Shown here in pieces: positions 35,039 through 62,593 of a stretch of 64,000 nucleotides of DNA. The position numbers and the translations under genes were made by a program. The DNA comes from Sporopachydermia quercuum (lineage: Eukaryota). Under the pieces are notes generated by a model. The model was not told the DNA's origin, ran no database searches, and was given only the letters and a program-made list of their open reading frames with translations. Numbering within the stretch: the stretch's first letter is position 1; the number at the start of each line of letters is the position of its first letter. The stretch covers positions 248,001-312,000 of the forward strand of contig BCGN01000005.1 of NCBI GenBank assembly GCA_001599295.1, read 5' to 3'.

Positions 35039-38000
35039 TTACTTCTTAGCTCTTCTTTTGCGGCCTTTAATGTTATTTTCAGCACTACCTTCAATATTTC
35101 TTTTACTGACAGCACCATTGTTATCGTCCTTATTCCTTTTTTTCTCTCGCACTTTCATATTTCCTTCTTCGGGATCTTCCCCAATCCCACTACTACTCTC
35201 GTTGTTCTCCACATTCTTCTCCCGAAACGTCCGAGCTCCCATTTTATTCATTGCTCTCTTAAGCCTCTTACTTGTCATGACTTCCCGAGAAACACTGGCA
35301 GACGGATCAACAATGAAGAAAGACCCTATATTAGACTGCACACCAAACTTTTGCTTATTATTCATATCCTGAATAACAGGAACTAATACCTCATCAACCT
35401 TACCTTGAGACCAACCAAGAGATCGGGTGAGAAACTTCCGGAGTAAATCCAAGTTCGGCTTACCCCATTGGAATTCCGTCGGATCTTTATCCACTTCGGG
35501 CCGAAGGTAAGCTTCTTGTACTTGAAAATCGGGAAAATCTTTACCGAGAAATAATTTACCTCGAAATTTTTTAATGAAATTCTTTTTCCAAGTGGTAGTT
35601 CCTTCAATTATTTCTCCATGCTGAACTTTCAGCCACCAATTGCGAAACCGGATTAACTCTTTCATCTGATGTTGTTGCCCCTCTTGTCGCGCCGGTTCGT
35701 CATCGTCTTCGTTTACATGCCCTTCACCTCCAAACTCCGCTAATAGTTCCATAGATGTAATTGGACCTATCCCACGAATTCCTTCTGTATAATCGCTTCC
35801 CATCAAGAAAGCCAATTCAATCAACCGATCTTGATTCAACTTCAGTTCATGTTCCAAATCCTTGCCATAATAACATTCCACATACTTCGACTGGTTAAAC
35901 AGGTTTCTATACACCTTGCTTTTCGTTCCGCCAAACAGAAAACAATCAGAATCGTCAGTAATAATACCATCAACCAATCCCATCTCAAGAAGCGTAGCAC
36001 ACTGAGCTTCTGCTTCCATTGGAGCAGTTATAAATGGAATGCCAAATCTGGCTAATAATTCTTGACATTCCTCAACCATTGTTTGCGTGACTTCATCAGA
36101 GTCTCTTTTATCTTTACGAAGCGATTCAGATAAGGATTCCTTCGTCGGGATATTCTGTGGTTGATAAGGATTTGTGACATTGTAAATGGGGTTGTGGTCA
36201 TTGTCCGAAATATCAGATTCATCTCTGATTCTCTTTGTGTCATGACTTTGGGCAATTTTGTGANTGTTCAATTCAGCGGCAAATCTTCCATGTTCCTCTT
36301 CTTCTTGTTGCAACTGAGCAAAAAGGTCTTGCTCTTCTTCGTCATCAAAGACATAATCTGCAATCGAGACCTTATGGACATTAGACGAATTCTTAGCAGA
36401 AACCATAATGGGTGACGAAGACGAGGATGATATGCCAGTAGGTTCATCAGCCGTAAGTGATTCTGTATATGGTTCAGCTCGAGAAGCGATGGGGGTTTTG
36501 GAGTTATCACTAGTATTATCAACAGCAATAACATTGGTATGATAGTTTGCGTTGGTGCCTGAATTTCTTGGTGTGACACCAATGCCAGCATTTGTTATTA
36601 ATTCACTCTTCCTGACTCCAGCATCAGCGTCAGCATCTTTAATAGCACTGTTATTGTCATTACCATTTATTCTTCTCACACCTAACTCTTCAATATCACT
36701 ATCATTAGCATTTTCGCTGTTGTTTTCTACAGCGATAACGCTATCATCTTCAGAGCTTTTATCATCAACACCACTATAAACACCATTTCTATAGATATTG
36801 CTATTCCCTTTACTATTTCTGATCTTTACCTCATCAAAAGGGACCAATCCTACTTCTAGATCTTCATCAATGGCGTTACTTGCTGCTTCAATTCCAATAT
36901 TTGACAGGCCATTAAATTGACTTGAGATAAAACGATTGTCTTCTTGAAACCAAGCCGGAGTTTCAGGCTTTTTGCGTTCAGAAAGAGTATTTATCTTAGA
37001 GTTTGAAGCAGTCTCCCTATTAATAACCGTATTTCTGACAACCTTACTACCATTCTTAGTATTATTATTCCTTCTCNCGGGAATTAATTTTTCATCTAAA
37101 GAATCACCAGAAGAGTAACCATCGGCTATTGATGAGAGCATCAGTTGATCCTTAGTAAGTAAATTGACAGAAATAGGCTTGATAGAGCTACTAGTAGGAT
37201 TAGTAGCATTAATATCAAAAATTCTATCATCTGCCAACATACTCCTAACTTTTCCAGAGGTGTTGATGCTGTTGGTTTTTCTATCAATCATACTTGCAGA
37301 ATTATTACTGTTCTTGCTATTACTTTTATTTGAAACATTTGTCGTTTTTCCTTTGTTAAATAGTGACGAGTTCTTAAGATCAAAATCAAACGATGAGAAG
37401 ATAGGATTCATGGTATTGTCGGTATTATTACTACCATTATTAATAGCCTTAGTACTATCTATCATACTACTAGCAACGTTTTTATCAACAGAAACAACAT
37501 CATCTGGATCTTCATCTGATACAGATCCAAATGTTTTGCTATCATAATTATAATTAGTATTAGTATTGGTACTGTTCTTATTTTTAGTCACATTCGCGGT
37601 CTTTCTGTCAACATATAATTCATTGGTTGAAAAATCATCCTTCTCATTTTTAACTTCTTTGATTATTTTGCTCGTCAGTTTTGAAAGTTCAATTGCACGT
37701 CGAAATTCCTCTTCTTCCTTTTGCTCCTCATCTTCATCATAGAATAACTGTGGCTTGGCCTGCTGCTGTTTCTGGTTCAAGAGTAACGAATCTGCCACTT
37801 TCGCCGAGTCTATAGATAATTCAATGCTCTTTTGTAGTTCGGTGGCTTGATCTAAATCGGTAATATCTTCGCCAAACAGATCTTCAAGGTCTTTACGTGA
37901 TATCCGTATTTGTTCATACTGTGACTCATTTGACTTCTGTCTCTCTGCCGGTTGTGGCTCCAGTGGCTCAGTTATTACATCTTCCCACTCAATGTCTTCA

Positions 38001-39247
38001 CATTCGTCCTCATCTTCCGTGTTTCCCTCATTCTCAAGTAGCCTCTCAGTCCCCGCTCCTTTTTGTCCCCTATTATCCTGTATCGTTCTCCTTTCTCCAA
38101 AAGCCTCGAAATTAGTCTCGTCGTCTTCATCCAAATCAATGGCCCGCTGAATGCTTGTTCCACTTCCGGAATTACCTTCTAAAGAAAGTGTCCATCCGTC
38201 ATACCGTTTCTGTAACATGTACTGCCCACCTTTCTCTCCAGCTATTCTTCTGCCCATAGTAAAGCCCGAATTTTTCTCATTTGGCATTCCAGATCCCGAT
38301 TTCGAGCGATTATTAAGAGGATTACCACCAATTAAGCCTTCATCTACACCGTTCAGGGTCATCAATCTCTGGGTTAGGTAATTACGCTTTGCCACACGGT
38401 TAATTTGAAATTTTGAAAACTCCATCCGATTAGGAAATAAAGCCTCTAATTGCTCTTTCGAATAACCCATACGAAGCCGAGATTTCAACCGGAGGTTGGA
38501 CAAAACTGTGTATTGGATAGTGTCTGGGAGGTTCCGAAACTCTGGATGATCAGGATCCATGTGGCTCAGATCAACATCATGTAGGTCGTGTTTTAAGCTT
38601 TCCGTCAACATCTCAAATTCCTCATCAGTAAGAAGCCGGTTATCATTTGTCGGAATGTTTAAACCACCTTCAATTTCAGGAAGATGATACTGATCAGCTT
38701 TGCGGAACATTTTCGCCGTGTTTCCCTTTTGAGAAATAGGTTTAACAAATATGTCTGTGTCCATGTTGTTCAAATCCTCTAAATAATAATAACTGCCTAC
38801 TTCGGTATTCTGATCAGTTTTCTCTTCTTCTGCATCCGTCTCCACCTCCCGTTCAGTCTCAGTTTCTCGGTCATTATTCACCAATTGAGCTTCTGCCTGT
38901 CGTTGAAGCTGCATAGATAACAGTCGCTCAGCAGTTTTTTCTGCACTGTCCCGTTTTCCTTGCCGACGCTCTTTCCGCTGCCGAATGGTCTTCCGTTTTA
39001 ATTCTGGGGCACCTCCGTCAAATACAAAAACAGGTCGAATTCCAAAGAACAAAAGTTTACATATTCTTCGGAAAAACCCAACGACATGGGAGTTTTTGAG
39101 CGCGTTACCTTCTGAGTCCCGTACTGCCTTCAGAAACTGGTATATCCAAATTGAAGCGTCTACAGCTAACCGTTGCCGAGATAAGGCTTCTAACCTGACG
39201 GGGCGAGCCGTCAGAGAGACGATGTCCCACAGTTGGTGGACACCCAT
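35039..39247 (-). CDS. RAD2: XPG-family nucleotide excision repair endonuclease Rad2
   Basis: N region MGVHQLW..LAVDASIWIYQFLKA..PVFVFDG; I region FGIPFITAPMEAEAQCA..GIITDDSDCFLFG; H3TH GSDYTEGIRGIG. Long Asn/Ser-rich spacer. Confidence 0.97.
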   Translation of the reverse strand: MGVHQLWDIVSLTARPVRLEALSRQRLAVDASIWIYQFLKAVRDSEGNALKNSHVVGFFRRICKLLFFGIRPVFVFDGGAPELKRKTIRQRKERRQGKRDSAEKTAERLLSMQLQRQAEAQLVNNDRETETEREVETDAEEEKTDQNTEVGSYYYLEDLNNMDTDIFVKPISQKGNTAKMFRKADQYHLPEIEGGLNIPTNDNRLLTDEEFEMLTESLKHDLHDVDLSHMDPDHPEFRNLPDTIQYTVLSNLRLKSRLRMGYSKEQLEALFPNRMEFSKFQINRVAKRNYLTQRLMTLNGVDEGLIGGNPLNNRSKSGSGMPNEKNSGFTMGRRIAGEKGGQYMLQKRYDGWTLSLEGNSGSGTSIQRAIDLDEDDETNFEAFGERRTIQDNRGQKGAGTERLLENEGNTEDEDECEDIEWEDVITEPLEPQPAERQKSNESQYEQIRISRKDLEDLFGEDITDLDQATELQKSIELSIDSAKVADSLLLNQKQQQAKPQLFYDEDEEQKEEEEFRRAIELSKLTSKIIKEVKNEKDDFSTNELYVDRKTANVTKNKNSTNTNTNYNYDSKTFGSVSDEDPDDVVSVDKNVASSMIDSTKAINNGSNNTDNTMNPIFSSFDFDLKNSSLFNKGKTTNVSNKSNSKNSNNSASMIDRKTNSINTSGKVRSMLADDRIFDINATNPTSSSIKPISVNLLTKDQLMLSSIADGYSSGDSLDEKLIPXRRNNNTKNGSKVVRNTVINRETASNSKINTLSERKKPETPAWFQEDNRFISSQFNGLSNIGIEAASNAIDEDLEVGLVPFDEVKIRNSKGNSNIYRNGVYSGVDDKSSEDDSVIAVENNSENANDSDIEELGVRRINGNDNNSAIKDADADAGVRKSELITNAGIGVTPRNSGTNANYHTNVIAVDNTSDNSKTPIASRAEPYTESLTADEPTGISSSSSSPIMVSAKNSSNVHKVSIADYVFDDEEEQDLFAQLQQEEEEHGRFAAELNXHKIAQSHDTKRIRDESDISDNDHNPIYNVTNPYQPQNIPTKESLSESLRKDKRDSDEVTQTMVEECQELLARFGIPFITAPMEAEAQCATLLEMGLVDGIITDDSDCFLFGGTKSKVYRNLFNQSKYVECYYGKDLEHELKLNQDRLIELAFLMGSDYTEGIRGIGPITSMELLAEFGGEGHVNEDDDEPARQEGQQHQMKELIRFRNWWLKVQHGEIIEGTTTWKKNFIKKFRGKLFLGKDFPDFQVQEAYLRPEVDKDPTEFQWGKPNLDLLRKFLTRSLGWSQGKVDEVLVPVIQDMNNKQKFGVQSNIGSFFIVDPSASVSREVMTSKRLKRAMNKMGARTFREKNVENNESSSGIGEDPEEGNMKVREKKRNKDDNNGAVSKRNIEGSAENNIKGRKRRAKK

Positions 39248-41243: not shown

Positions 41244-42300
41244 ATGGAAATCTCGGATACAAAGCCTACGTTCAATAGGCCCCTTTGTAAGCTATACCTT
41301 TGTACTTCAGTTGTACAAATGACTCCACTAATATAGCACTAACACCACAGTCTATCCCACACATCCCCATCCTCAAATAGTTGGCATATTCTCACCGAAA
41401 TCACATGCTATCTCCCTCCCTGTCTCCGCAAATATAATCCATCACAACCCACACAACCAATCGCCCATGGAATTCATCGACAGATCCATCTTGTCACCTT
41501 ACAACCATCAACAACACCCTCAGCAGCACCTTATAGAGGACATCTGTTCATACCATAATTTAATCTCTTCTACTGGCGGAGTGTGCTACTCAAAACCATC
41601 TATGGGGTTTCCTTCCGCTCCATCAGCAATGGGGGGACACCCTGCAAATAAGACAGGCTATGAGTTTCCCCAGTACAGCTATTATACCACACAAACAGGG
41701 TTTACTCCGCTACTTCCTCATGAGAAAAGCACTGGCAGGCTCGGCGGGATACACGGTTCATTTCCAACAGATTTCAAACCCCGAGAAATTGCAAATATGC
41801 CCCATAAAGAAAAAGTAGATAAATGGCTAGGTGGATTGCCCCTCGTAGAGTCAGGAGGAGAAATAGTCAGTCTCGGATACCCGGCCGTACCTTCTAGCCA
41901 AGATACTTGCTCCTCGGGAACAATTTACACTTGTCCGGATGATTTGATTGAGCTTCAAGCTCGGATAATCACTCGGCTAAACCATCAGCTGTATGAATGT
42001 CAGAGCGGACAGCTATTCCCGGAGTTCATACTGGACGGATTGGACAGGGGCTCGGATGAACTTGGAGGAATTAATGCGGAAGAAAGAGGGGTAGAAACGG
42101 AGATGTTTTACGAGGAAATGGATGAAAAGGAATGGTATGGATTTGAGGAAGAAGAAGCGGATGATGAGGATGAAGACGAAGAAGAGAGGTCACAAAGAGA
42201 TGCCGAAGATGTCAAACATGATGAGGGAGATAATGGAATTTTTCGGGAACCTAGGGACAAGCATATGCGACAGGATATTGAAATTGTATTGTCCCAATAG
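41244..42300 (+). CDS. Uncharacterised protein; probably 2 exons, ~330 aa, acidic C-terminus
   Basis: The 41467-42300 ORF extends upstream through intron 41287-41350 (GTAAGC..CACTAAC..CAG) to an in-phase ATG at 41244. Domain-like segments KEKVDKWLGGLP and DDLIELQARIITRLNHQLY. Family not recognised. Confidence 0.7.
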
Positions 42301-42786
42301 CCGAATACTAGAGGATTATGGAAGAATAAGAAACGTCTGTAGCGAAAACAGCCAAAAAACCGAAATTAACTTGATGTTCGGCTTCGGCCTTTCCTCCTCG
42401 TTTCGGCATATATTGAATCACATCCGAGTAATCCTAATATCACTATCACCGACCGATACGTCAATTCAGTTTCAGTCACATGATGTTTGTCCGTTGTAAT
42501 GCAAGAAGCGCAACTACCCCTCATACTCATTGGCATCATACCTCTTTACACCGAACTACCCCCTCAATCTTTTTCTTTGGTTCCGTGCCGAAAATTACAT
42601 AAATGCATATTATTGTACTAGCATTATCACGTGCTTTATTTATCAGCTAAAACTCTAATTGATCTATTTGCTACCTATTGTTATTTTTGTTGATGTTCAT
42701 TACTAATTCTGATAGGACTATTCCCGATTAAGATACTAGTTAAGCCACATTTCATCCCCAATATGGAAGCTCAGGTTGTAGATAGC

Positions 42787-42901: not shown

Positions 42902-45337
42902 CTATTCCCTTTTAAGCTTCTCAGCCACAATCCTGAACCTCTCAAAAACTTTATCAGCAATCCGCTTCTTTACCCGCTTCAAAACAGCCCGGGGACCGAC
43001 CGACTGCGCTACCAAATCGGCTTCCTCTTCCGTCACAAGCCGCTTCACCAGCAGATTGAAAATTGTCCCGAAGTTCAAAGCCAACACAGTGGATGTAAGT
43101 ATAATCACGTTATACGGCATAGAGAAATCCGGGGTTGGTAAAGAAAGCAGTAAAGAAGATGACCGTGTAATATACTCAGCTGTCCGGATGAGCTCCCCGT
43201 TGCCCGATTCAGATTTGGACTCATGTTCCTGTTCTTGGACAACAACTACAACCGGCTCTAAATCAAATCCGCGGTTGGCGTCCGGAGGATATTCCCCTAA
43301 TAGCAGTAAACTCTTATCAAAAGAATAAGTCAAAGCGATGCTCTTTTCCGCCGGGACATTTAATTCTAATTCAATATGCGTGGGACGTTTCCGGTCAACC
43401 TCGGCTTGATAATAACTGGACACCAGTATGGGATTTTCATAAGACGTATCGGTTTCTTCCTGGACAGTTATTTGCAGAGTATGAAGATACACTCGGACAT
43501 ACCAAGGAAGGGTCTCAAAATAAGACAAAGCTATATCAGTTGTCCGTGTGTTTCGGATGATGGTGCGGAATCCTCCGGTGTCTTGACCGTAACCGGTAAA
43601 AGACCGGGACACGTACACTGGAGGTTCTTCTATCGAGACAACATCGGAGCTGTTTGTGGTTTTGTATTCAATATTACATTCATGTTTAGACGGAATTGTG
43701 ATACAAGAGTCTTCGGGGTGGATGATAAAGAATATCTCCTTGTACGATACTGCTCGTGGCACTTCGAGAGAACTATCGGCAGACTTTTCGGGATTGGAGT
43801 TATTCCACTGTTCATCCGTTGTTTCCTCGGTTTGTCCGTCGAGTTCGGAGTTGACCTCCGCTCCAGTTTCAGTTTCCGTTTCTTCTGATTCCACAGGTAT
43901 TTCATCGTCGGCTTCAACGTTAGCTCGCTCAGCTTCAAGGTTTTCTCCGGTTTCGGCTTCTGGTTGTTCCTCCAAGTTCGGGTTGTTCGCCTGGTTATTC
44001 AGCCTTTCTGAGTCATCAGTTTCATGTGCACCTCCCGTTTCTAGTTCCAATTCCAGTTCCGCTTTCGTTACGGCTACAGTTTTGGGTAATGTTTCCGACT
44101 TTTCTGACTTGCAGTCCACTCCGCCATCCTCCACTAATTCCTTGTCATATCTCACAGCAATAACATCCCATGAGTCTGTGACATGACTACAAACCTTGAC
44201 AGCACTCAATCCTACCGGACAATCACCCGCTATGCGTCTTCCGAAAATACCCCGCAGATCCCATTCCATATTGTCTGGTGATCCCGCAGGAAAACACGCG
44301 TACTGACTGTGAAATTTAGTAGCGTCACACCGTAAATCAGCTCCTTTTACTGGTTTCGGAACGGCTTCCACCAGCCGTTGCAATGAGCGCTCAACGGACA
44401 ATACGGCCTCAATGGACTGCTTGAAATTCAACCAGCAAATCTTACCCCGGACGTCACATTCCGTGACAACAGACACTGCCATTGAATGCCAATTAGCGTC
44501 GTATATTTTATGTCCGTCCAATAACGAGGAAATACCGGCTTTACCCTTACATGGCAGTAATTTGAGGAACGGGGTCAAATTTTCAGTACAAACCGGTTCG
44601 CCTGGTAAAGCAGCTCGTAATAAAAACATACGAGTTTTTGGACTATCGATATCCGACTGTCCGCTAGCCTCCGCTTCGTGCTCTGCATGGACGGCTGATA
44701 ATTCCTCATAACTCCGATCACTTGGTTTAAATGCTCTTTTTGGATACGTTGTACTTTTCTCATCTATAAAATTCAAAGAGGCACAAAACAACCCTGACAA
44801 GTTGTTTACAAGACGTCTCCATTGGGAAAATGCAGATAGCTCCGACTCGGATTCAATCCATGCCCATAATTCAACTCCGGTCCCTCCGGCATATTTACCG
44901 TTTTCAGGTATTGTACCCCATTCTTCCGAATCCCATCTGCCGCCCGAAAACCTTAACTGTAACTCCCGGACCCTTGTCAATGTTAAGATCGGCCCCAGAG
45001 AACGTGGAAACAAGGTGAAATGATCATATTGGTTGATCGACTGAGGTAAATGTGATGTTTTGATACTTGAAAACGACTGCCTTTCAGACAAAATGTCGAA
45101 ACTGAACTCAGCCAAAACGTTATTTGATTTTAACGGCGTGATATTTAATTCTTCATTGTAGGAATAAGGGAGGATTGACGACGAATTAAATGAATTGCTG
45201 TCTGAAGTGCCGTATGATGATTGAATTTCTGTTGCAATTGTTGGTGAAAGCAGAAATGTAAGGAGGACAGAAAAAAGAAACGCAAAAGACAACGAAGGCC
45301 AAGGAAACTTTCGTTTTGAATTGTTGGGGCTTGTCAT
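42902..45337 (-). CDS. GPI16: GPI transamidase subunit Gpi16 / PIG-T
   Basis: Signal peptide; HFTLFPRSLG, GGTGVELWAW, LSGLFCASLNFID, EPVCTENLTPFLKLLPCKGKAGI, EYPPDANRGF and LPTPDFSMPYNVII motifs; C-terminal TM helix with a basic tail. Confidence 0.96.
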   Translation of the reverse strand: MTSPNNSKRKFPWPSLSFAFLFSVLLTFLLSPTIATEIQSSYGTSDSNSFNSSSILPYSYNEELNITPLKSNNVLAEFSFDILSERQSFSSIKTSHLPQSINQYDHFTLFPRSLGPILTLTRVRELQLRFSGGRWDSEEWGTIPENGKYAGGTGVELWAWIESESELSAFSQWRRLVNNLSGLFCASLNFIDEKSTTYPKRAFKPSDRSYEELSAVHAEHEAEASGQSDIDSPKTRMFLLRAALPGEPVCTENLTPFLKLLPCKGKAGISSLLDGHKIYDANWHSMAVSVVTECDVRGKICWLNFKQSIEAVLSVERSLQRLVEAVPKPVKGADLRCDATKFHSQYACFPAGSPDNMEWDLRGIFGRRIAGDCPVGLSAVKVCSHVTDSWDVIAVRYDKELVEDGGVDCKSEKSETLPKTVAVTKAELELELETGGAHETDDSERLNNQANNPNLEEQPEAETGENLEAERANVEADDEIPVESEETETETGAEVNSELDGQTEETTDEQWNNSNPEKSADSSLEVPRAVSYKEIFFIIHPEDSCITIPSKHECNIEYKTTNSSDVVSIEEPPVYVSRSFTGYGQDTGGFRTIIRNTRTTDIALSYFETLPWYVRVYLHTLQITVQEETDTSYENPILVSSYYQAEVDRKRPTHIELELNVPAEKSIALTYSFDKSLLLLGEYPPDANRGFDLEPVVVVVQEQEHESKSESGNGELIRTAEYITRSSSLLLSLPTPDFSMPYNVIILTSTVLALNFGTIFNLLVKRLVTEEEADLVAQSVGPRAVLKRVKKRIADKVFERFRIVAEKLKRE

Positions 45338-46880: not shown

Positions 46881-47229
46881 ATTTAAATTTTTCATTGTCT
46901 CTTGTGAATCACAATCCTTTCTTCTTGGCGAATTCCTAAATTTACCATGGTATGTATATATCAGCACTAAGAAGCTCATTACCATTTCAGTAAAATTGCC
47001 GTAGTAAAGCAGTTAGTGTCTTAAATGTGCTTCAGGTTCGGAACAGAATAACGTCGCAAAAGAGGGAAATCAATTGCGGAACAATTATTGGTAACTGAAA
47101 ATATATCCGAGGTTTACTCTAAAACCTATACAGGGATTTTTTCGGATTAATTCTTCATTAAGAGCTACATTTCATTCATTGCTTGCTATCCCAAATATAG
47201 ATACACATACAAGTACAAACTAATCTCGG

Positions 47230-50200
47230 ATGGCAGCAAACGGAAAGAAACAAACCACGCATTATTCCGTGCCAAAATCGGTTCTGTCTGAACTGGAAGC
47301 GGAAGCTGCTGATTTTGATCCTCTTGCAAACGTTAAATCCAAAACGTCTGTCTATGCAAACCAATCGGATTACCAAAGACAACAGTACAAACGGATAGCT
47401 GAGGTGATCAGCTCAGAAACGAATTTATCTGTTGAAGAGCGGCAAAAGTTAGTGGACTTACAACGCGAGGAGAAAAATGTGGAATTGGAGTTGTCCCGTC
47501 GTAAACGGGAGACAGAAGCGGAGGCAGAAGCTGAAAAATCACCGGGAAATGGTGGAGGTAAAACCCCGCCTAGAAGAGGAAAACGGAGACGATGGGATGT
47601 TCTACCGGAAGACATCGAAGAAGCCGGAGATACTAACGGAAAAGTACACTTTGAAAACGACATTAAATCAACTGAAAATACCGAAAATATCGAAAACGCC
47701 CCGAAACGNCGTACCAGATCCCGTTGGGATCAACCTGCACCAACTTCCACAGAGACTACGATCACCCGAAGAAGTAAATGGGATCAACCGCCTTCTATCC
47801 CGGTTTCGAATCAATCTACTCCACTTCCCCCACTACCTGTGCAGTCTGTTTATTTCTTAACGGACGGTGTACTTGACGCATTACTGCCTTCAGAAGGTTA
47901 TGAAATACTTACCCCGCCTCTAGGCTACGAATCGGCTTCATCGATTGCCCACCAATTAGCTCAGATTCACTCGGCAACCCAAAATGTGGGGTATTCCATT
48001 CCGGACAGCTCCGAAGCTTTACAAGTTCAAAGCGCTTTAGCTGATGCGGCACCTTTACTGCCGCCGGAATCCGTCGGAGAACTACAGTTTTTCAAACCCG
48101 AAGACCGGCGCCATTTCGGGTTGCTTCTGGACACTTCAGTGTCCGACTCTGACCTTTCTGTAGAGGAAAGGAAACAACGTCGGATCATGAGGTTGATTCT
48201 CCGCGTGAAGAACGGTACCCCTCCTGTGCGAAAGGCAGCCCTTCGGACCCTTACCGACTCGGCCCGCAGTTTTGGCCCAAAAGCGTTATTCCACCAATTA
48301 CTTCCGCTGCTGATGGACACCTCACTGTCCGAACAAGAACGTCATTTACTAGTTAAACTACTGGGACGCATACTGTATAAACTGGACACTCTGGTGCGTC
48401 CGTATAGCCATAAGCTACTTGTGGTAATTGAGCCCCTGCTAATGGACAAAGATGGATATGCCCGGGCAGAAGGAAAAGAGATTATAGCTAATTTAGCGAA
48501 AGCTGCCGGACTAGCGGACATTGTCGGAACTATGAAACCGGATATTGATCATCCGGACGAATTTGTCCGAAACGCAACTGCCAGAGCCTTTGCCGTTATT
48601 ACTTCCGCTTTAGGTGTTCCTGCACTACTTCCGTTTTTAACGGCAGTATGCAAATCGCGGAGATCATGGGAAGCGCGTCACACCGGTGTTCGAATAATCC
48701 AGCACATTCCAGGTGAAATCGGATGTGCCGTGCTTCCACATTTACACGGATTAGTATCAGCTGTGGCGCAAAACCTTCATGACGAACAGCCAAAAGTTCG
48801 GCCCGCGGCTGCTTTAGCATTGGCTGCTTTAGCGGAAGCGGCTTATCCATACGGAATTGAGTCTTTTGACCCGGTTCTGGACCCACTATGGTCCGGTGTC
48901 CGGAAACACCGGGGAAAAACACTAGCGGCGTTTATCCGGGCTGTCGGGAGTATAATTCCGCTAATGGACGCCCAATATGGAAATTACTACGCAAAGGAGA
49001 CATTAAATATCCTAATTAGGGAATTCTCCGCACCCGATGAGGAAATGCGCCGGATAGTGTTGAAAGCATTACAATCATGTATCGGATCGGAGTCGGTTCA
49101 ACCCGGATTTATCCGAACAGAAGTGATTCCAGAGTTTTTTAAGTTTTTCTGGACTCGGAGGTCAGCCTCCGATTTAAGCATGTATTCCTCGGTTACAGAA
49201 ACAACCACCGAACTGTCCGGAAAAGTCGGAGTAGCGGAAATAATTACCAGACTTGTCCCGTTATTTCTGGACGAAAGTGAACCATTACGGAAAATGGCGT
49301 TGGAAACTTCAGAAAAGATCCTGTCCGCATACGGAGCAGCAGACATCTCCGATCGGCTTGAAACTAGACTTGTGGATGCACTGCTGTCCGTTATTTCAAC
49401 CCAAAACGGGTACAGTATTCAGATCGTCTTCGCTTTCAAAACCATCATCTCTGCTTTGGGTATCCGAATGGGGAAATACCTCCCGGAAATTGTAAGAGTT
49501 CTTCTAAACGGGTTCGACCATAAAGACCCCGCAGTAAGAGAACTTTGTGCCGATTTGATTGCCCCACTTGCCCCTATCATACAGAAAAACGGCAATGAGC
49601 CTCTCCTTATTCAACTAGGTATTGTATTATACGAATACCTTGGAGAAGAGTATCCGAGTGCCCTCGGAGCGAATCTCGGAGCAATGTCGGAGATAATTGC
49701 GGCTATTGGGCCAGACTCAATGAANCCCCCCATTAGAGACGTTTTAACCCGGATAGCGCCGATTTTGAATAACCGGCATGATAAGGTTCAGGAAAATGCG
49801 GTGAATCTTATCGGTATTATTGCTAAGCGGGCTTCGGATAAAATAGCTGCCCGGGAATGGATGCGGATTTGTTTCCGGCTATTGGATTTACTGAAATCCC
49901 ACAAAAAGACCATTAGACGGGCCAGTAATCGCACTTTCGGATACATTGCCGAGGCAATTGGTCCCCAAGATGTTTTGGCCGCGCTTTTAACGAATTTACG
50001 CGTGCAAGAACGGCAATTACGGGTTTGTACTGCAGTTGCTATCGGCATCGTTGCCGATACATGTAAACCCTTCACAGTTTTACCCGCGCTTATGAATGAA
50101 TACAAAACCCCAGAACAGAACGTCCAAAACGGTGTATTAAAAGCTCTTAGTTTCATCTTTGAGTATATTGGACCTACCGCAAAAGATTACGTATACGCGG

Positions 50201-50670
50201 TTATCCCCCTGCTTCAGGATGCTCTTACGGATAGAGAACAAGTACACAGACAAACCGCGGCTACAGTAGTGAAACACATGGCGTTAGGATGTATCGGACA
50301 AGGAGTTGAAGATGCGTTTGTCCACTTATTGAACTTATTATTGCCGAATGTGTACGAAACGAGTCCTCACGTGATCGATCGGATAATTGACGGAATAAGC
50401 GGGGTTCGGAATGCGGTTGGAGCTGGGCTTATTTTGGAGTATTTGAAAGTGGGACTTTTTATGTCGGCACGAAAGGTTAGAGTTCCGTATTGGCGCATGT
50501 ATAATGAAAGTTATGTACAAATGGGAGATGCAATGGTTGCTTATTATCCGGAAATGGAAGAAATAGCCGGTCATATGGAGAAAATCGGGAACAGACCGGA
50601 ACGGAGTTTAGAAGCGGAAGAAAATGTGGGGATTAAGCTTCGAAGAGAAGTTCTAGATGTGTGGATTTAA
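47230..50670 (+). CDS. HSH155: U2 snRNP SF3b subunit 1 (SF3B1/Hsh155)
   Basis: [66 protein letters not shown] and [12 protein letters not shown]-repeat motifs; N-terminal RWD/KWD repeats. Confidence 0.98.
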
Positions 50671-51671: not shown

Positions 51672-54356
51672 CTAACTGAGCATTGGCTTTGATTCATCGT
51701 TTTCCTCGTCGTCATCGTCATCGCCGTCGCCTTCAGCTGATTCTTCTGATTCGTTCGCCTCGGCAGACTCGTTGTCGGTTTCCTCATTGGTATCATTTTG
51801 GCTCTCCTCACTACCAGTTTCGATTTCCTCTTCGGATTCCTCCGTCTCTGTTTCTGTTTCTGTTTCCGTTTCCGCACCGCTGTCGGTTTCACTTTCCTCT
51901 TCTATATCATCGTCTTCCTCCTTCGTATCAGCAAAAAATTCATCCAAGCTCTGTAATTTATACTTCTTTTGAGCGGCTTTCGCCTTATTATGTAAATCTC
52001 TTAATCTTGACTCGTTAGAGATCCAATTTGACCCATTCACGCTGTTTTTCATGCCGGTATTGCTAGTACTAGACCCAATTCGATACTTTAAGTTACCAAA
52101 ACCTCCACCAGATAGTCCATCTTGGGAATAATCTTTGATTTCAATTTCCTTTTCCAGTTCTCTAAGCTCACTTGTATCCTCAAATGGAGTATTCTCACTT
52201 CGCCATGCTCCCAATTGGTGAATTGCACCTCCTGTAATAAGTCCGATTGATCCGATAGTCGATGCTTCGTCATCTCGTGAGTTATCATGGTCGCCGGAGG
52301 GTCCATGTTCAGATTCGGTATCAGATTCACGACTGCTGGTAATTCCTATACCAGTTCCGCTAACGGTATTATCACTAGTTTTCAGCGAAATGCTAGGCGC
52401 TGGTTTTGGGGCTTGGAACATCAGTGTGGCTAGTTTGATGCTCCTTGCCATCCCTCCAACAATATTCTCATCTTCCTGTTTATCAAATTGAAGCAAACTA
52501 CCAAACATTCGGGCTCGATCTCGTATGTCATACTGGGAATCATATCTAGCCAATTGTAATGTGTATTTGAACAGTTTAGCAATAGGTGAATTCACCGATG
52601 TTTCTGCTAATTGGCTGACAAATGATGCATTCATTCCATCAGTCTCAGCCTCCTCCAATAGCTTTTCTAGCTCATATGTGTACACTTTGGTAGCTAGCAA
52701 TAAAATTTGTAGACGTACTTCAGCGCATTCATATGCAAAAGTTTTTAACAGCACCCGTAAGATATCTGGTGTTTTCTTTGGCATAATTCTTACAAATTCA
52801 CCAATTAGCCATATAATACTTGCTTTCCCAATAGTAGAGGTACCATTGCTGTTCCTAGTCAGGATTCTGCTTAATTGGTTCACCACGGGAATATTCTGCT
52901 CAGGATTCTCTTGTATAATGTAACGCACGACAGTTAGACATTCGTTTGTGACAGCTTGATTGCTGGTAGGATTAGTTATTTGCTGTAGTAAATGCTTCAA
53001 TAGTAGCGCGACAGTAGTGCTGTCGCCATTGGTTAAAGGTATTTCTACTATACGGCCAATAGCTTTGATTGATTCAGTAGCTATAGCACCATTATAAACG
53101 TCGGTGATGTTTTCTGCATAGTAACGAAGCTCAGCAAAGATTGGTTTAAACGACTCCTTGGTTACTATCACGCTGAGCACTTCTAGCTTGAGTTTGGCAA
53201 TTCTATGGCTATCTGTAGCCAGAAGGAAGAAATATGAGTAGTGGGAGGCGAACAGTTCAGGGCATTTTATTGCTAGTAACTTGATATTTGCTAGAACGAG
53301 AATCTGAAGGCCCACAGGGTTCCGGAGAAGCCGAAGCACAGGAATAGCAATGTTCCGTGTCCGAAGAAGCTCGGGAGGGGCCAAAGCATAATATGCTTTG
53401 GTCACGGCCAGTATGACAGTTGCATACTGGCTGAACTTAAGATTCTGCAAGCTATCAAGGAACAGCTGGAGATCCTTGTCAATGGGCCTACTTGCCTGCA
53501 GTAAAGCGCCCGCAGGATTTTCCGCAAAGGTAAGTTCGGGCTTTCTGAGATACTTCCGGCAATACTGGATGCCCATTTCAATGAACGTCAATTGGCACCA
53601 TGGGTCAAATTCCGTAATCAGACTACAGTATCTCCTAAAATGCACATGAATCAAGTCTAATCCATTAGGGGAAACCTGGTGCAGGGCAAACAGAGCAGAA
53701 CCAATGACAAATGCGTTCTTGTCTGCTAGGAGAACCTTTAGGAAATCAAGAACTTGCTGTTCATTGATAGCATTAGTACTAGGATCAGCCCGGGACCATA
53801 TTTTAGTAAGAGCAACGGCAGCGGTTTTCCGTACGGCAGCAGAATGGTCTGTCGCGCATTTTTTGATCCCCAGAAGCACAATTGGTGTTATAACAGTCAA
53901 CGGGATAGCTGACATTACTTTCAAAGCCAACGATCTCACCAAAGGATCATTATCGTTTAAGGATTTCTGTATAGTGTTTATAGACAATAGAGCTAAGTCA
54001 GGTTCTAGTTCGCTGTACCGTAGCAAGTAAATAAATACCAATTTACGTAATTGCAAGTTTGAAGAGGCCACGTTTTTGATTACGTCAGGAAAATGCTGTT
54101 TGGCACTGGAAATAGACGCCTCGCGAGACATGGAAGCAATAAGGCTTTTCATTCCTGATAGTTTATCATGTTCAGCGGTAGAATTCAGCTGCTTCTTGAT
54201 TTCTAGTGCTGGGGTATGTAAATAAGGCGATGGTGATGCGTAAGAAGTGCTTGCTGTGGTTTCAGCAATTTTCGCTGAGGCAGAAGCTGCTGCTTCCATG
54301 GTGAGNTCTTTAGCTGACTCCAGCATGGCTGCCACTCTGGAGAAAGAGTCTGCCAT
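51672..54356 (-). CDS. APL6: AP-3 adaptor complex beta subunit
   Basis: N-terminus SFSRVAAMLESAKxLTMEAA; FPDVIKNVAS, YLLRYSELEPDLALLSINTIQKSL, IIWLIGEF and ARYDSQYDIRDRARMF motifs; acidic C-terminal tail. Confidence 0.93.
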   Translation of the reverse strand: MADSFSRVAAMLESAKXLTMEAAASASAKIAETTASTSYASPSPYLHTPALEIKKQLNSTAEHDKLSGMKSLIASMSREASISSAKQHFPDVIKNVASSNLQLRKLVFIYLLRYSELEPDLALLSINTIQKSLNDNDPLVRSLALKVMSAIPLTVITPIVLLGIKKCATDHSAAVRKTAAVALTKIWSRADPSTNAINEQQVLDFLKVLLADKNAFVIGSALFALHQVSPNGLDLIHVHFRRYCSLITEFDPWCQLTFIEMGIQYCRKYLRKPELTFAENPAGALLQASRPIDKDLQLFLDSLQNLKFSQYATVILAVTKAYYALAPPELLRTRNIAIPVLRLLRNPVGLQILVLANIKLLAIKCPELFASHYSYFFLLATDSHRIAKLKLEVLSVIVTKESFKPIFAELRYYAENITDVYNGAIATESIKAIGRIVEIPLTNGDSTTVALLLKHLLQQITNPTSNQAVTNECLTVVRYIIQENPEQNIPVVNQLSRILTRNSNGTSTIGKASIIWLIGEFVRIMPKKTPDILRVLLKTFAYECAEVRLQILLLATKVYTYELEKLLEEAETDGMNASFVSQLAETSVNSPIAKLFKYTLQLARYDSQYDIRDRARMFGSLLQFDKQEDENIVGGMARSIKLATLMFQAPKPAPSISLKTSDNTVSGTGIGITSSRESDTESEHGPSGDHDNSRDDEASTIGSIGLITGGAIHQLGAWRSENTPFEDTSELRELEKEIEIKDYSQDGLSGGGFGNLKYRIGSSTSNTGMKNSVNGSNWISNESRLRDLHNKAKAAQKKYKLQSLDEFFADTKEEDDDIEEESETDSGAETETETETETEESEEEIETGSEESQNDTNEETDNESAEANESEESAEGDGDDDDDEENDESKPMLS

Positions 54357-56021: not shown

Positions 56022-57764
56022 ATGATCAACTTAAATCTTCATACTTACACAGCAATCAGCGGATTACTGGCCATTGGCGTCATTGGCATAGCTTTCTACG
56101 TACATCCAACATACTATGCAGCTTGTATCTCTTTAACGCTGGTACCAAGCTACCTTATATTGCTGAATTTCCTGGTAACAATACTTTTATTAATAGGGCG
56201 AATGCTACAAAGCATTCTATTTGGTCAACTGAGAGTCGAAGAAGTAGATAATATTGCGTCTCATGCTATTAATGAAGTAGTATCTTTAGCTTTAGCATCA
56301 TCGAGATTCTATTCAGTACCTATAATGGGCTCTTATGTTAGTGGAGGAACACTGCTATCGTTGAAAATATACCATTGGATTCTTCAAAAGAGAATTCCTT
56401 ATATAATCAGAAGAAGTTCTATTGAAACAGAGCCTGAGGAAGTACCNGATGGACCATTCAGTGCCAATGGTTATTTTGCTAATACACGGCTGGCAAATAT
56501 ATATAAAAAATTCAACAGTATAAGGCATCATTTTATCTATAAATCAATTGTCAACCGATCGTGCGCTTTGGTAATTATTTTCTTAGCTATAGACATTTTG
56601 ATGTTTCGATATTGTATTAAAGAGATGAACTTCCTTGGGAGGTTTATGCTTTGGTGTGGATTAGAATTCTTTTATCTGGCATTAAATGCCACTGAGATAC
56701 TGTTTGATCTGGCTATTGCTTTATACGAAATCCATTTCCTTGCAAGTAATCCAGACGAAGAATATTGGGATAAAAAGTTCCTATTAACTACATTTATGCA
56801 TATAGTATGCAATCTAATAAGAATAACAGTTTATTTCTACTACATGCTATCATTCAACCATCTGGAAGCTGTTATATATTTAGTCGTGGACTTCTATGAA
56901 CCTACAATCAGATTATATAAGGAGGCAACAGTTTTCATCAGCAGAATATGGAAATCGAAAGAAATTGACTCAAAATTATACCCAGCAACAAATGAAGATT
57001 TCTCAAGGCAAGATATGTGTTTGATATGTTTGGATAGTATGGACATGAATCCTAATAGTAAAGCGAAAGATCCTAAGAGACTTACATGTGGTCATTTGTA
57101 TCATTATGGATGCATCAAGCTTTGGCTGGAAAGGAGTTTGCAATGTCCTGTATGTAAACACAATGTACTTAGTGTTATAGATGTTCCATATTATAAACGA
57201 GCTGCATCAAATGAGACAGTGAATACTACAGATGGCAGTATCTCAAAGNCAGAAATAAACCAAGAACAAGCCATAGAAGCAATGACAAATAAGAATAACG
57301 AAACTACACCAGCAGCAACAGCAACAACAACAGCAGTAGTATCGTCGTCATCATCAAATACTGGAATAGATGCTGGACCATCTAGTAGCAGCAATAATGT
57401 TGGCATTGCTGATCATACTACTGCGAATGAACTATTCACTATTACCAATAGCAACTCTTCCAGACCTATCCCTACTTCTTGCTCGCCATTTTCCTCTTCT
57501 TTCCCTTGCACTGTCCACTCGATCGAACCTCAAAAGGACTCAAATATAGTATTGATTGATAATTTTCCAGTGAGGGTTATCAATAGAGGCAGCATCGACT
57601 CTGACTGGGGTTTATTCCCAGCTAGAATCATCAAGAGTCACGCTGAAGTATTATTAAACAATGATGAGCCAGAGAATAGCGAATGGGCTTCTGTCAATAT
57701 TTATAAAAGGTCTGGTGATGTCTCTCATGGTTCACAGTCTTTTAAGAGGATAAAAGCAGAGTGA
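56022..57764 (+). CDS. Multi-pass membrane RING-H2 E3 ubiquitin ligase, divergent Hrd1/synoviolin-like
   Basis: Several hydrophobic N-terminal segments with QSILFGQLRVEEVD (Hrd1 FG.LR..E motif). RING CLICLDSM..PKRLTCGHLYHYGCIKLWLERSLQCPVCK. Confidence 0.8.
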   Translation: MINLNLHTYTAISGLLAIGVIGIAFYVHPTYYAACISLTLVPSYLILLNFLVTILLLIGRMLQSILFGQLRVEEVDNIASHAINEVVSLALASSRFYSVPIMGSYVSGGTLLSLKIYHWILQKRIPYIIRRSSIETEPEEVXDGPFSANGYFANTRLANIYKKFNSIRHHFIYKSIVNRSCALVIIFLAIDILMFRYCIKEMNFLGRFMLWCGLEFFYLALNATEILFDLAIALYEIHFLASNPDEEYWDKKFLLTTFMHIVCNLIRITVYFYYMLSFNHLEAVIYLVVDFYEPTIRLYKEATVFISRIWKSKEIDSKLYPATNEDFSRQDMCLICLDSMDMNPNSKAKDPKRLTCGHLYHYGCIKLWLERSLQCPVCKHNVLSVIDVPYYKRAASNETVNTTDGSISKXEINQEQAIEAMTNKNNETTPAATATTTAVVSSSSSNTGIDAGPSSSSNNVGIADHTTANELFTITNSNSSRPIPTSCSPFSSSFPCTVHSIEPQKDSNIVLIDNFPVRVINRGSIDSDWGLFPARIIKSHAEVLLNNDEPENSEWASVNIYKRSGDVSHGSQSFKRIKAE

Positions 57765-60070: not shown

Positions 60071-62593
60071 TTATTCGAATAACTTCCTTCTATGCTTCTT
60101 TCTGCTAGGAGTACTATGAGTAAATATTTCATCTTCTGATGAAGAGAAAACCATTTGTTCTTTTTCTAAATGCTCATCAATGTCTTTAAATACGTCGTCG
60201 ATTACTTGCTTATCATAGATTAAACCTACCTCCGAGTTTCTTCTGGGACTGCTTCCGGTTTGAGAAATATGACCCGATTTTCTCCGAGTTCGAGCCGAGA
60301 CGGAATTCTGTAGAACGTCTATATATAAGTGCTTTGGCTTCCTGTTTTGGGGGGTCTTCAAATATTTTGGAGGTTTTGGTAGTCTAGGAGGCTTCCGTTT
60401 TTGCTTAGAGGACATCCTGATTGGGGATGAGTTTTTTGTTTTGCCGTTCAAGGAAATAGCTCTCAGCGATTCTGTGATTTCCGATGATTCCAAAGTTTGA
60501 TCCAGTTGATAATCGGATAAATCCTCTGGGGTTGAATCGGGTTTAAACAGATGTGAATCAAGTAAAGCACTGGTCTCATCATTGGAGTCAGAGTCCAAAG
60601 CTGAGTCAGATGTTTCAATAACCTCCGACTCGAACTCATCCTCGGATTCAAGTTCCAATTCCGGTTGTTGAAACAATGAGTGTCGGTATTCTTTTCCTAA
60701 TTGGAAACTACTTGACCTAGAAAGATTCCCTTCCGTCTCGGAATAAGAATGCATATTTCCAGTACTTGGCTTCCGGTTATACTTTCGGAACACATTTTTC
60801 ACTAAACCAGCAACCCGGACTCCAGTTTCCTGAATATCCGACTCGGTTAATCCGCTTTCAAACTCTGAATCTACTTCCATTTCCAGTACGATCGGTATTC
60901 CACTACCTATACAGTTAGCGTCAGCTTTCCTTTTACCCTGCTTCCGCAAACCATGCTTCTTTTGGGTTGCGCTCCTAGTGTTCCCTTGCTCTGGTTTTTG
61001 ATTTACCTTTCGACTGGATTTCTGAGGTTTTACATCACTGTCATCAGATCGGTCTATCCCTTGCTCCATGTCTCCTAATACATCCATGGACATATTCTCC
61101 ATTCCATTTCTCACCTGCACTAAACACAGCACATTGAATGACAAATCATCTATATCTATGTCCTCCCAAACTATGTTTTTAACCTGGACAGCACGTTTAA
61201 GGTCATCTNGATGATCTTCATAAGGAAATTGGAAGTGGCTTAGATAGTCAAACACAAGCTCCAATTCTATGTTCACATATTCAGTTGGAAATGAGCCCCC
61301 GAGATGAATGCACTGGAAGAACGCTTGTAAAGCTCGGCAAAAAAAGGTGAATAACTCATTGAGATCGGACAATGTTGGCTTTGAAGCAAGTAAAGTTTTT
61401 CTATTGTCAGTATAGATATGATGTGATTTATAAGNCTCTGTTTTCTGAGAAACTAGAGTTGCTGCTTCGGTTGTAGATTTAGTGAATGTACTTTCCGTAC
61501 AACCTGAATGAGTAAAATCTTTATCGCTAATTAATGTAGCAAACTTCTTGTTGGCTCTATAAATGGATACGTAACCTTTTAATGCCCACAGGATAGGGTC
61601 CTCACTGAAAGGATGAATTACTATATAATCCTCGATAAGCTTTTCTGTTTCTTCGATATTCCCATGTCTGAATTTGGACATTATTAACTGAGGCACGTAA
61701 TGGAAAGCATTGAATTTGCGAATTTTCATGTTTGTCCTCCGTGATTTTGGGTTTAGGAAATAGAATGACGGTGGAATAAAGCGAGCTGGTGCAGAATGAG
61801 ATACAATAAGGTATCTGAGTAGTTCTTCATCGTACAATAGACAAGCAGGAATGTCCTTTTCAGGGAAAGTGTGCAGAGCGTACTCACTTAAAAGTTTAGA
61901 AAATCCAGGAATTTCTTCTGTGGCATGATCTCGCATTTGCAACAAAATATCAAACCCTATTGGCCATAAGGCATTCGGATCAACCATTGTGGCAGTTCTA
62001 ATCAACATTCCGAATGCGCGGAAGGCTAAAGGGACGTCTTCTCGAAGTAAACTGAGATGTAGAATTTGGTTGATAATTAATAAATGACGTTCTGAATAAT
62101 TGACTGTGGATTTTGAGTTTTCCTTCAAACTTGATTTATCGTAATGTCGTGGTAATGTTTCGGTGCCTTTAATAACGTTCTGAAACCTTTCAGAAGTTCT
62201 GCCTCTGATTTTGGTGATTTTCTTGAGAAAATGTTCAAAATTAGGTTCAACTTCGGCATCTCTTCCTTTTTCTCTTTGATCATCATCCGAGTCATCTTCA
62301 TAATCGATTTCTGAACTATCGGAATCATTAATGTGCTTCTTGGTGTTCTGTTTCGTAGTCTTACTATCATTCTCATTGCTCTTCCTAATAGCAGATATTC
62401 CGGCATCAGCTTGAATTTTTCTCGTTATTGGTAAAATGGACTTCAATTTTAGTAGTCTTTGATATACAGGTAAGCCTTGACAGCCAAGCTTCTCTAGTTC
62501 TTCTATCTCCTGCTCTACTAAGTACCTATTCATATACCGCTGCAATGCTCTATCAGAAGCTTGGATCCTTCGTTTGTAAGGAATATCAAACAT
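60071..62593 (-). CDS. RRN11: RNA polymerase I core factor subunit Rrn11 with a long C-terminal extension
   Basis: MFDIP N-terminus and RHLLIINQILHLSLLREDVPLAFRAFGMLIR..LWPIGFDIL match the Rrn11 conserved block; PFSEDPILWAL further on. Confidence 0.75.
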   Translation of the reverse strand: MFDIPYKRRIQASDRALQRYMNRYLVEQEIEELEKLGCQGLPVYQRLLKLKSILPITRKIQADAGISAIRKSNENDSKTTKQNTKKHINDSDSSEIDYEDDSDDDQREKGRDAEVEPNFEHFLKKITKIRGRTSERFQNVIKGTETLPRHYDKSSLKENSKSTVNYSERHLLIINQILHLSLLREDVPLAFRAFGMLIRTATMVDPNALWPIGFDILLQMRDHATEEIPGFSKLLSEYALHTFPEKDIPACLLYDEELLRYLIVSHSAPARFIPPSFYFLNPKSRRTNMKIRKFNAFHYVPQLIMSKFRHGNIEETEKLIEDYIVIHPFSEDPILWALKGYVSIYRANKKFATLISDKDFTHSGCTESTFTKSTTEAATLVSQKTEXYKSHHIYTDNRKTLLASKPTLSDLNELFTFFCRALQAFFQCIHLGGSFPTEYVNIELELVFDYLSHFQFPYEDHXDDLKRAVQVKNIVWEDIDIDDLSFNVLCLVQVRNGMENMSMDVLGDMEQGIDRSDDSDVKPQKSSRKVNQKPEQGNTRSATQKKHGLRKQGKRKADANCIGSGIPIVLEMEVDSEFESGLTESDIQETGVRVAGLVKNVFRKYNRKPSTGNMHSYSETEGNLSRSSSFQLGKEYRHSLFQQPELELESEDEFESEVIETSDSALDSDSNDETSALLDSHLFKPDSTPEDLSDYQLDQTLESSEITESLRAISLNGKTKNSSPIRMSSKQKRKPPRLPKPPKYLKTPQNRKPKHLYIDVLQNSVSARTRRKSGHISQTGSSPRRNSEVGLIYDKQVIDDVFKDIDEHLEKEQMVFSSSEDEIFTHSTPSRKKHRRKLFE

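Follow-up and report, generated by a model that had tools for sequence, protein, structure and literature searches.

Where silent-site composition differs between regions, the usual explanations are GC-biased conversion, mutation bias and introgression, each of which shifts G+C content broadly. In yeasts, the Higher- and Lower-GC3 classes (GC3, G+C content at third codon positions) describe neighbouring genes that fall into two clustered silent-site classes, the cause of which is not translational selection. Here we analyse a 64-kb stretch of Sporopachydermia quercuum DNA (assembly GCA_001599295.1, contig BCGN01000005.1, positions 248,001 to 312,000; referred to as the window, with coordinates counted from its first base), in which the trinucleotide CCG/CGG, counted on both strands and called the word below, is concentrated in eight discrete tracts. 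The clustering of silent-site differences among neighbouring genes is shared with the Higher-/Lower-GC3 classes. Those classes, however, span up to hundreds of genes, whereas the tracts here measure 0.15–3.5 kb and are often only parts of genes, and one trinucleotide carries the whole difference, with GC3 equal at sites where the word cannot form. The published main text on the two classes contains no mention of "CGG", and the top results listed by literature searches contained no description of a CCG/CGG-specific or other trinucleotide-specific compositional domain in a yeast.

Other described systems share some features with the tracts. Bacterial very-short-patch repair at Dcm sites is a sequence-specific mismatch repair that drives oligonucleotide over-representation, and a word-restoring activity of this kind would raise its word on both strands and in any frame. 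That system is genome-wide, is tied to a methyltransferase and depletes T-containing derivative words, whereas in the window CTG/CAG and TGG/CCA are not depleted and the effect is confined to the tracts; we know of no such word-restoring enzyme in yeasts. CpG islands, and the GC and CpG peaks found at stable recombination hotspots in dogs and birds, resemble the tracts in being discrete and kilobase-sized and in their high CpG relative to surroundings that are AT-rich and poor in CpG, but there all G/C-rich words are raised, at promoters, whereas here isolated CpG stands at 0.96 times its level elsewhere, other CpGs are avoided and promoters are spared. A regional compositional anomaly in a yeast chromosome is also known from Lachancea kluyveri, where the GC-rich left arm of chromosome C is described as an introgression (PMC9246145); that arm is 1 Mb long, contiguous and generally GC-shifted, as opposed to sub-gene patches that differ in one word over an unchanged background. 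Clusters of half-sites for Zn2Cys6 (zinc-cluster) proteins offer a further parallel, in that Rgt1 binds multiple copies of CGGANNA (PMC3639059) and Gsm1 requires overlapping CCGG (PMC10954478). The clusters and the tracts have in common a CGG core, a CGG-A flank, an excess of CCGG and many copies without fixed spacing or orientation. The known clusters consist of a handful of promoter sites, whereas the tracts hold 8–181 sites each, about one per 22 bp, in coding DNA, next to promoters that are not enriched.

Tracts were called with a two-state Poisson hidden Markov model (HMM) on 50-bp bins of CCG/CGG counts, which gave rates of 6.9 and 42.5 sites per kb and a gain of 245 log-likelihood units over a single rate. 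The eight dense tracts, of 0.15–3.45 kb each, are physically clustered, all lying within 35.4–60.9 kb, and the dense state is absent from positions 1–35400, in line with the first-pass annotation of the window, which had called the genes left of 35 kb sparse. Together the tracts contain 430 sites in 9,450 bp, compared with 402 in the other 54,550 bp, a 6.2-fold difference that, like all tract-based effect sizes, is inflated because the tracts were delimited by the same statistic; the whole-gene observed and expected counts and the equality at non-word sites reported below are free of this inflation. The six patches that had been picked out by eye (11.2 kb, with 441 occurrences against 390 in the other 52.5 kb) match the HMM tracts closely, and the model adds one at 53.3–53.85 kb.

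The longest tract (47201..50650; 181 sites, 52.5 per kb) is coextensive with the HSH155/SF3B1 open reading frame (ORF) (47230..50670, plus strand; 1146 amino acids (aa), Pfam SF3b1 and HEAT families), and its final site, at 50615, lies 55 bp ahead of the stop codon. The tract at 42951..45000 (102 sites, 49.8 per kb) takes in the ORF of GPI16, a GPI transamidase subunit (42902..45337, minus strand; Pfam Gpi16, E = 3e-196), apart from its first ~110 codons. To the left of this, 41701..42600 (36 sites, 40 per kb) covers the 3' two-thirds of an ORF at 41467–42300, which has no Pfam family, together with ~300 bp beyond its stop codon. Two tracts lie in a RAD2/XPG-like gene (35039..39247, minus strand; 1402 aa, Pfam XPG_N and XPG_I): 37801..39200 (43 sites, 30.7 per kb) corresponds to approximately the first 480 codons, with the final site before the ATG (39247) at 39208, and 35401..35700 (14 sites, 46.7 per kb) to the 3' part, from which weaker enrichment runs on to the ORF end at 35039. 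An adaptin large-subunit-like gene (51672..54356, minus strand; Pfam Adaptin_N) is partly dense, with a short tract near its 3' end (51751..51900; 8 sites in 150 bp) and another in the N-terminal trunk region (53301..53850; 19 sites, 34.5 per kb). The last tract (60251..60900; 27 sites, 41.5 per kb) occupies the C-terminal, non-domain part of an RRN11-like gene (60071..62593, minus strand; Pfam Rrn11), which is dense only in its 3' third.

For each gene we obtained an expected count by encoding its protein with the codon usage of its neighbours. HSH155 has 180 sites where 46.8 ± 6.8 are expected, and GPI16 has 104 where 30.5 are expected, whereas MSH2 (26448..29309, plus strand), a sparse control of similar size and conservation, has 22 against 24.5. 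The contrast in arginine codons between these genes, first noticed by eye, is confirmed by the counts, CGG being used for 29 of the 78 arginines in HSH155 and for 0 of 38 in MSH2. Within RAD2 the annotation had described dense ends and a sparse middle, and the observed/expected ratios agree: 1.7–3.6 over aa 1–500, 0–1.3 over aa 501–1100 and 1.6–4.6 over aa 1101–1400, the sparse middle being an N/S-rich low-complexity insert at aa ~500–1100. GPI16 is not dense over aa 1–100 (ratio 1.1), whereas its acidic insert, an E/T-rich low-complexity segment at aa ~401–520, is. The adaptin-like gene, which ends in an acidic low-complexity C-terminal tail, has 47 sites against 31.5 expected, with ratios of 1.9–2.8 over aa 101–400, and in RRN11, where a ~340-aa low-complexity C-terminal extension follows the Pfam domain, the ratios are 2.9–3.5 over aa 601–800 as opposed to 0.7–1.8 in the domain region. 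Between dense tracts lies an HRD1-like RING ligase gene (56022..57764, plus strand) that is strongly depleted of the word, with 3 sites against 15.4 ± 3.8 expected and a shuffle z of −3.1. In the left half, VPS52 (16323–17963) likewise falls below the prediction from neighbours' codon usage, with 4 sites against 13.1 ± 3.3. The depletion in these two genes means that there may be three states: depleted, ordinary and dense.

The word excess is not a property of the SF3B1 gene. A metagenome scan recovered 80 fungal SF3B1 loci (50–63% identity, all with a GC of at least 0.42), in which CCG+CGG divided by the mean of the remaining all-G/C triplets gives 0.68–1.20, compared with 2.15 for the HSH155 gene of the window. 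Nor is the excess explained by GC content, CpG content or codon preference. Synonymous shuffles within a gene, which preserve the protein, its codon usage, GC3 and CpG within codons, left codon-straddling sites in excess (z = +6.7 for HSH155 and +5.4 for GPI16), as did shuffles restricted to 40-codon blocks (z = +4.6 and +2.2, respectively), so that the enrichment exceeds the codon-shuffled nulls that the first-pass annotation had proposed as a check. Five sparse genes fell below their shuffles, with z of −2.5 to −3.3.

A local rise in GC3 and CpG, whether owed to generic GC-biased gene conversion or to an isochore-like domain, would yield the word as a by-product, and gross composition is what such a rise would give: the patches have a GC of 0.42–0.51 and an observed/expected CpG of ~1.1, compared with 0.35 and ~0.6 elsewhere, and the affected genes adjoin each other. 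The word itself, however, accounts for ~60% of the GC excess, since with the word masked the GC of the tracts falls from 0.441 to 0.378 and that of the remaining DNA from 0.357 to 0.344. Among G/C runs bounded by A/T, those that contain the word are more frequent in tracts than elsewhere (CCG/CGG 4.87-fold, CCGG 8.7-fold, CGGC 7.3-fold, CCCG 4.8-fold and CCGC 4.6-fold), whereas those without it are at 0.96 (CG), 1.03 (CC/GG), 0.75 (GC), 0.97 (CCC), 1.06 (CGC) and 0.94 (GCC), and there is no rise of CpG across flanking contexts. Synonymous sites behave in the same way. Where the word could form, G+C at synonymous third positions (S3) is 0.56 in tracts (421/749) and 0.17 outside (132/784); where G or C would give only a CG, CC or GG step it is 0.33 and 0.25; and where neither the word nor such a step is possible it is 0.38 in both (404/1068 and 972/2544, p = 0.85). 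No general rise of G+C at synonymous sites is thus seen in the tracts. The enrichment persists under control for GC3 and CpG, the control fixed beforehand as the one that could remove it, and the reverse control abolishes the GC3 difference once the word is accounted for. With intergenic DNA inside the region also at background, we consider a by-product of regional GC3 or CpG extremely improbable. The A/T-bounded palindromes GGCC (0 in tracts, 19 elsewhere) and CCGG (28 and 18) gave counts too small to interpret.

The strength of the preference was estimated with a conditional logit at fourfold degenerate sites, comparing 1,428 tract sites with 2,285 sites of 13 sparse genes. In the tracts G/C was used at ×0.66, completion of the word at ×2.31 and any other CpG at ×0.49; the corresponding factors in the sparse genes were ×0.41, ×0.46 and ×0.62. 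An opportunity to complete the word was taken at 320 of 653 sites (49%) in tracts and at 81 of 658 (12%) outside. These estimates bear on a methylation-linked origin, in which methylated CCG/CGG or CCGG would decay across the genome and the tracts would be islands free of methylation, or the reverse. Known bacterial methyltransferases recognise CCGG, and the avoidance outside the tracts both of the word and of other CpGs would fit such decay. Inside the tracts, however, use of the word exceeds that of the A/T alternatives (0.66 × 2.31 = 1.5), a positive drive beyond mere absence of decay, while other CpGs are still avoided there, and the 68 isolated N sites of the window show no excess of CpG context (previous base C at 12/68, next base G at 10/68). 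Saccharomycotina are moreover reported to lack cytosine methyltransferase domains for the most part (PMC12543289), and we regard methylation as a very unlikely cause.

The signal is also independent of codon phase and of strand, as had been claimed from inspection. In HSH155 the word occurs 54, 74 and 52 times in phases 1, 2 and 3 (CGG 29/40/34 and CCG 25/34/18), and at fourfold sites the coefficients are positive for both the sense CGG (+0.77) and the sense CCG (+0.50). Selection at the level of translation, for CGG arginine, CCG proline and GCG alanine codons, would account for the shift in the use of these codons, which in HSH155, GPI16 and ORF 41467 taken together rise from 5% to 36% of arginine, from 8% to 33% of proline and from 6% to 23% of alanine codons, respectively. 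Two-thirds of the occurrences nevertheless straddle codons (in HSH155, 54 are in phase and 126 out of phase), the choice of codon hinges on the first base of the next one, the antisense word is favoured equally, and one tract extends beyond a stop codon. Of all the explanations considered, codon-level selection is accordingly the one to which we assign the smallest probability, and the core of the earlier reading, that this is a DNA-level signal and not translational codon selection, stands on the evidence of all phases, both strands and one non-coding stretch. Selection on mRNA structure was tried as a further candidate and rejected (mean folding z of −0.64 for the HSH155 sense strand, −0.56 for its antisense and −0.10 for MSH2), because the effect is small, is equal on both strands and is expected where complementary triplets abound.

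Each of the three positions of the word is pushed. At the third position, CGN codons are CGG at a frequency of 0.57 in tracts and 0.16 outside; at the first, the base preceding a GG across the codon boundary is C in 0.38 of cases in tracts and in 0/24 outside; and at the middle position the third base of serine, threonine and alanine NCN codons followed by G is a word-forming C or G in 55% of cases in tracts, as against 13% outside. The same codons followed by A or T change little between tracts and outside. Both A and T give way to the word-forming bases. The annotation had offered a local mutation bias among its candidates, and a context-dependent bias in mutational input, tied to the chromatin or transcription state of gene bodies, would be in keeping with tracts that are kilobase-sized, clustered and mostly within transcribed gene bodies, with the amino acid drift towards G+C described below, with the slight excess of sense CGG over sense CCG (+0.77 as against +0.50), and with the regional non-adaptive heterogeneity known in yeasts (PMC9246145). 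For such a bias to be the cause, however, rates would have to be raised at three positions, from A as well as from T at each, and all in the direction of a single word, whereas isolated CG, CC/GG and other G/C triplets are unchanged and no precursor triplet is depleted. The density profile along genes is, in addition, a plateau with abrupt edges, and simple transcription coupling is disfavoured because three of the four flanks on the 3' untranslated region (UTR) side are sparse. Plain local mutation bias is disfavoured, and we hold a context-dependent input bias of this kind to be rather unlikely.

The tracts had been described as ignoring gene boundaries and as continuing into non-coding DNA, a description that has to be corrected. 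The limits of promoter-side and intergenic DNA are for the most part respected: 18 of the 19 non-ORF segments, in both halves of the window, have 0–13 sites per kb, averaging ~7.5 per kb when 42301–42901 is set aside (209 sites in 27,780 bp), and the intergenic regions 39248–41466, 45338–47229, 50671–51671 and 54357–56021 have 6.0–9.0 per kb. The description does apply to the edges that fall within ORFs and to one tract that continues past a stop codon. Of the 16 edges, 4 are no more than 60 bp from an ORF end (both edges at HSH155, the 5' edge at RAD2 and the 3' edge at GPI16); other edges fall inside ORFs and do not follow protein conservation, and there is no gradient away from promoters. 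The non-coding continuation at 42300–42600 was borne out, 42301–42901 being the sole high non-ORF segment, with 12 sites in 42301–42588 straight after the stop codon of ORF 41467–42300, downstream of which we found no convincing reading frame. Two other non-coding segments have an intermediate density of ~20 sites per kb, several of them CCGG or CGGAA: 34136–34325, which lies downstream of RAD2 and upstream of IPP1, and 46588–47229, the ~640 bp upstream of HSH155. These may be zinc-cluster promoter sites of the ordinary kind, or they may mark the margin of a tract.

On/off blocks of 0.15–3.5 kb within one 26-kb region, some with edges inside ORFs, are also what a mosaic ancestry would leave, that is, patches acquired by gene conversion or introgression from a related lineage rich in CGG/CCG. 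Recombination needs homology, which copies differing at most silent sites would lack. The composition at non-word synonymous sites is moreover identical in and out of the tracts (0.38 and 0.38), the same avoidance of other CpGs is found in both, and no second, diverged copy of the region is present at 80% identity or above in the contigs of the public sequencing runs described below. The closest named relatives of the dense HSH155 and sparse MSH2 proteins are the same taxa (Nadsonia, Sugiyamaella, Lipomyces and Dipodascopsis), with only 52–58% identity, a distance too great to resolve recent exchange; the organism is on this account a Saccharomycotina-like yeast that branches deeply and has no near relative in the collections searched. 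A precedent in yeasts exists in the GC-rich arm of Lachancea kluyveri, which is attributed to introgression (PMC9246145). We nonetheless judge an origin by mosaic ancestry to be quite improbable.

The word had been thought to be written through synonymous sites; as a statement about DNA this holds, but the effect is not solely silent, since amino acid changes in HSH155 run towards G+C. Scoring derived changes by the G+C of codon positions 1 and 2, at alignment columns with 80% or more agreement among 40 orthologues, we found that 98 departures raise and 81 lower G+C in HSH155, compared with 41 and 93 in MSH2 (Fisher p = 2e-5). Five of nine lysine-to-arginine changes in HSH155 use CGG. Creation of the word as the driver of the replacements was considered and rejected, as the word overlaps 56 of 259 derived codons (22%) and 101 of 548 conserved codons (18%), p = 0.30.

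Given that the composition at non-word sites is identical to that of the neighbours and that other CpGs are still avoided, the tracts appear to be resident DNA with the mutational background of their neighbours and one added force. All positions of the word are pushed, whichever base is the alternative, and near-relative words are untouched; this force would accordingly recognise the product and not a precursor, and because it is the finished word that is recognised, we infer a fixation-type bias or protection from loss in place of mutational input. The explanation that we favour, to which we give a probability of roughly 45%, is therefore a force that acts in situ on resident DNA and recognises the finished word CGG/CCG. 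It would favour the word on either strand and in any phase, with Y-CGG-A (Y, pyrimidine) as the best form and CCGG most of all. The flank preference is mild: the base before a CGG codon is a pyrimidine in 30 of 37 cases, and A follows a GG preceded by C across the codon boundary in 56% of cases, compared with 41% for glycine codons without a preceding C. CCGG is present in 63 copies where independent placement would give 5. To our knowledge, the Zn2Cys6 zinc-cluster module is the only fungal reader of a lone CGG, and a reader of that type is preferred for this reason; we infer that such a putative CGG-reading protein may act across the kilobase-sized tracts, mostly over gene bodies.

The favoured force could take either of two forms. 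In one, weak selection for occupancy would keep the word dense, the tracts serving as a low-specificity binding lattice; in the other, repair or gene conversion would restore or spread the bound word. The flank preference, the excess of CCGG and the even coverage of HSH155 speak for selection. The gaps between sites in HSH155 have a coefficient of variation (CV) of 0.71, compared with 0.88 ± 0.07 in protein-aware simulations that favour the word to the same total (none of 300 was as low), and the largest gap is 71 bp as against 119 ± 26 bp; the evenness is marginal in the N-terminal part of RAD2 (p ~0.04). Repair or conversion is favoured by the kilobase scale and physical clustering of the tracts, by the fact that amino acids and one non-coding stretch are also affected, and by the way in which the largest tracts flank two divergent promoters on either side. 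The two forms cannot be separated from this window.

Several observations weigh against the favoured explanation. Zinc-cluster sites normally lie in promoters, whereas here upstream regions are at or near background, as are all promoter-side intergenic regions between dense genes, and binding by a zinc-cluster protein, proposed from the motif, is putative. The 10.5-bp helical spacing suggested for a binding lattice was not found, z being at most 2.0 at 10–11 bp with a family-wise 95% bound of 4.4. Across distances of 1–45 bp and three orientation classes no fixed pair spacing or orientation other than CCGG emerged, the remaining values (z at most ~3.8) being patternless. GPI16 lacks even spacing (CV 0.85, with 0.88 in simulation), and much of the evenness in HSH155 may come from simple short-range exclusion; very short gaps between sites are depleted, and tandem (CGG)n arrays are not in evidence, direct pairs at a distance of 3 numbering 3 where 10 are expected. 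The selective form has against it the coding location, the lack of a known function and the price of selecting so many sites, and selection acting on near-neutral sites in the hundreds is much to ask. For the repair or conversion form, the plateau shape, the spared promoters and the depleted HRD1-like gene beside a third divergent promoter are unfavourable, and we know of no eukaryotic enzyme that restores or spreads a word in this way. A regional non-adaptive force would explain the clustering of affected neighbouring genes and the G+C-ward drift of their proteins no less well than selection. Finally, the inflation of tract-based effect sizes has to be borne in mind, and all results come from this one 64-kb window; either the dense or the sparse state may be the typical one of the genome.

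A bolder possibility, which we hold to be on the unlikely side, is that the tracts represent an undescribed, sequence-encoded kind of chromatin domain, "CGG islands", in which a putative zinc-cluster-type reader would coat gene bodies, or else a word-specific conversion drive. The lattice of the former, of about one site per 22 bp, would be upheld through silent sites and even conservative amino acid changes. Under the latter, the reader would direct repair or gene conversion towards the spread of its own word, a counterpart in a eukaryote of the word-restoring repair of bacteria. The probability left over by the favoured explanation and its rivals goes to explanations not yet thought of.

The sequence of the tract region is genuine. 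Over 42813–61000, contigs from three public runs of two samples agree with the window with zero differing letters, although the assembly may itself have been built from data among these runs. At 46147 the contig of the 2023 run has one extra A relative to the window and the 2016 runs, the sole difference in 18.2 kb. The window has 36% G+C and contains 88 N in 64 kb, of which 68 are single and scattered and the remainder form one cluster beside a poly-A run (42787–42812). The single N sites look like heterozygous or uncertain calls. Their density is 0.21 per kb in the tracts (2 in 9,450 bp) and 1.02 per kb in other ORF DNA (27 in 26,496 bp; p = 0.018), a hint only, as three sparse genes are likewise free of N.

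A Pfam search of the ORFs identified a housekeeping set of budding-yeast type. In addition to MSH2, VPS52 and the RAD2/XPG, GPI16, HSH155/SF3B1, adaptin large-subunit, HRD1-like and RRN11 genes described above, it comprises a WD40 protein, a 6-phosphofructo-2-kinase-like protein, an SRS2-like helicase, an RFC subunit, two aldo-keto reductases, TRP1 and IPP1. Scans of the window for tRNAs and against Rfam gave zero matches, and measured against a Markov expectation no splice signal or other abundant motif stood out in the sparse DNA. Several genes in the left half appear to be split by introns (18879–19718, 20662–21850 and 23827–24267), and the frame of the RFC subunit, with an AAA domain, continues on the 5' side of the first ATG. 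A tRNA m1G methyltransferase domain and a PQ-loop repeat were each found in a short stop-to-stop frame in the left half, and the apparently non-ORF DNA at 19.5–24.5 kb is therefore not free of genes. Two minus-strand ORFs without a Pfam family, 7361–8632 and 8580–10574, overlap by 53 bp and together account for 10 of the 68 single N sites; a single gene broken by a frameshift, an intron or an ambiguous call may underlie both.

The difference between neighbouring genes in this window is a single three-letter word, with the rest equal to two decimals, and the case thus isolates a force that recognises a specific short sequence. If selection is the cause, a DNA-level function would be spread over coding regions; if repair or conversion is, the tracts would record a sequence-specific drive of a kind not described in fungi. 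In either event, models of codon usage and selection would misread genes of this kind if they take the mutational background to be the same throughout a genome.

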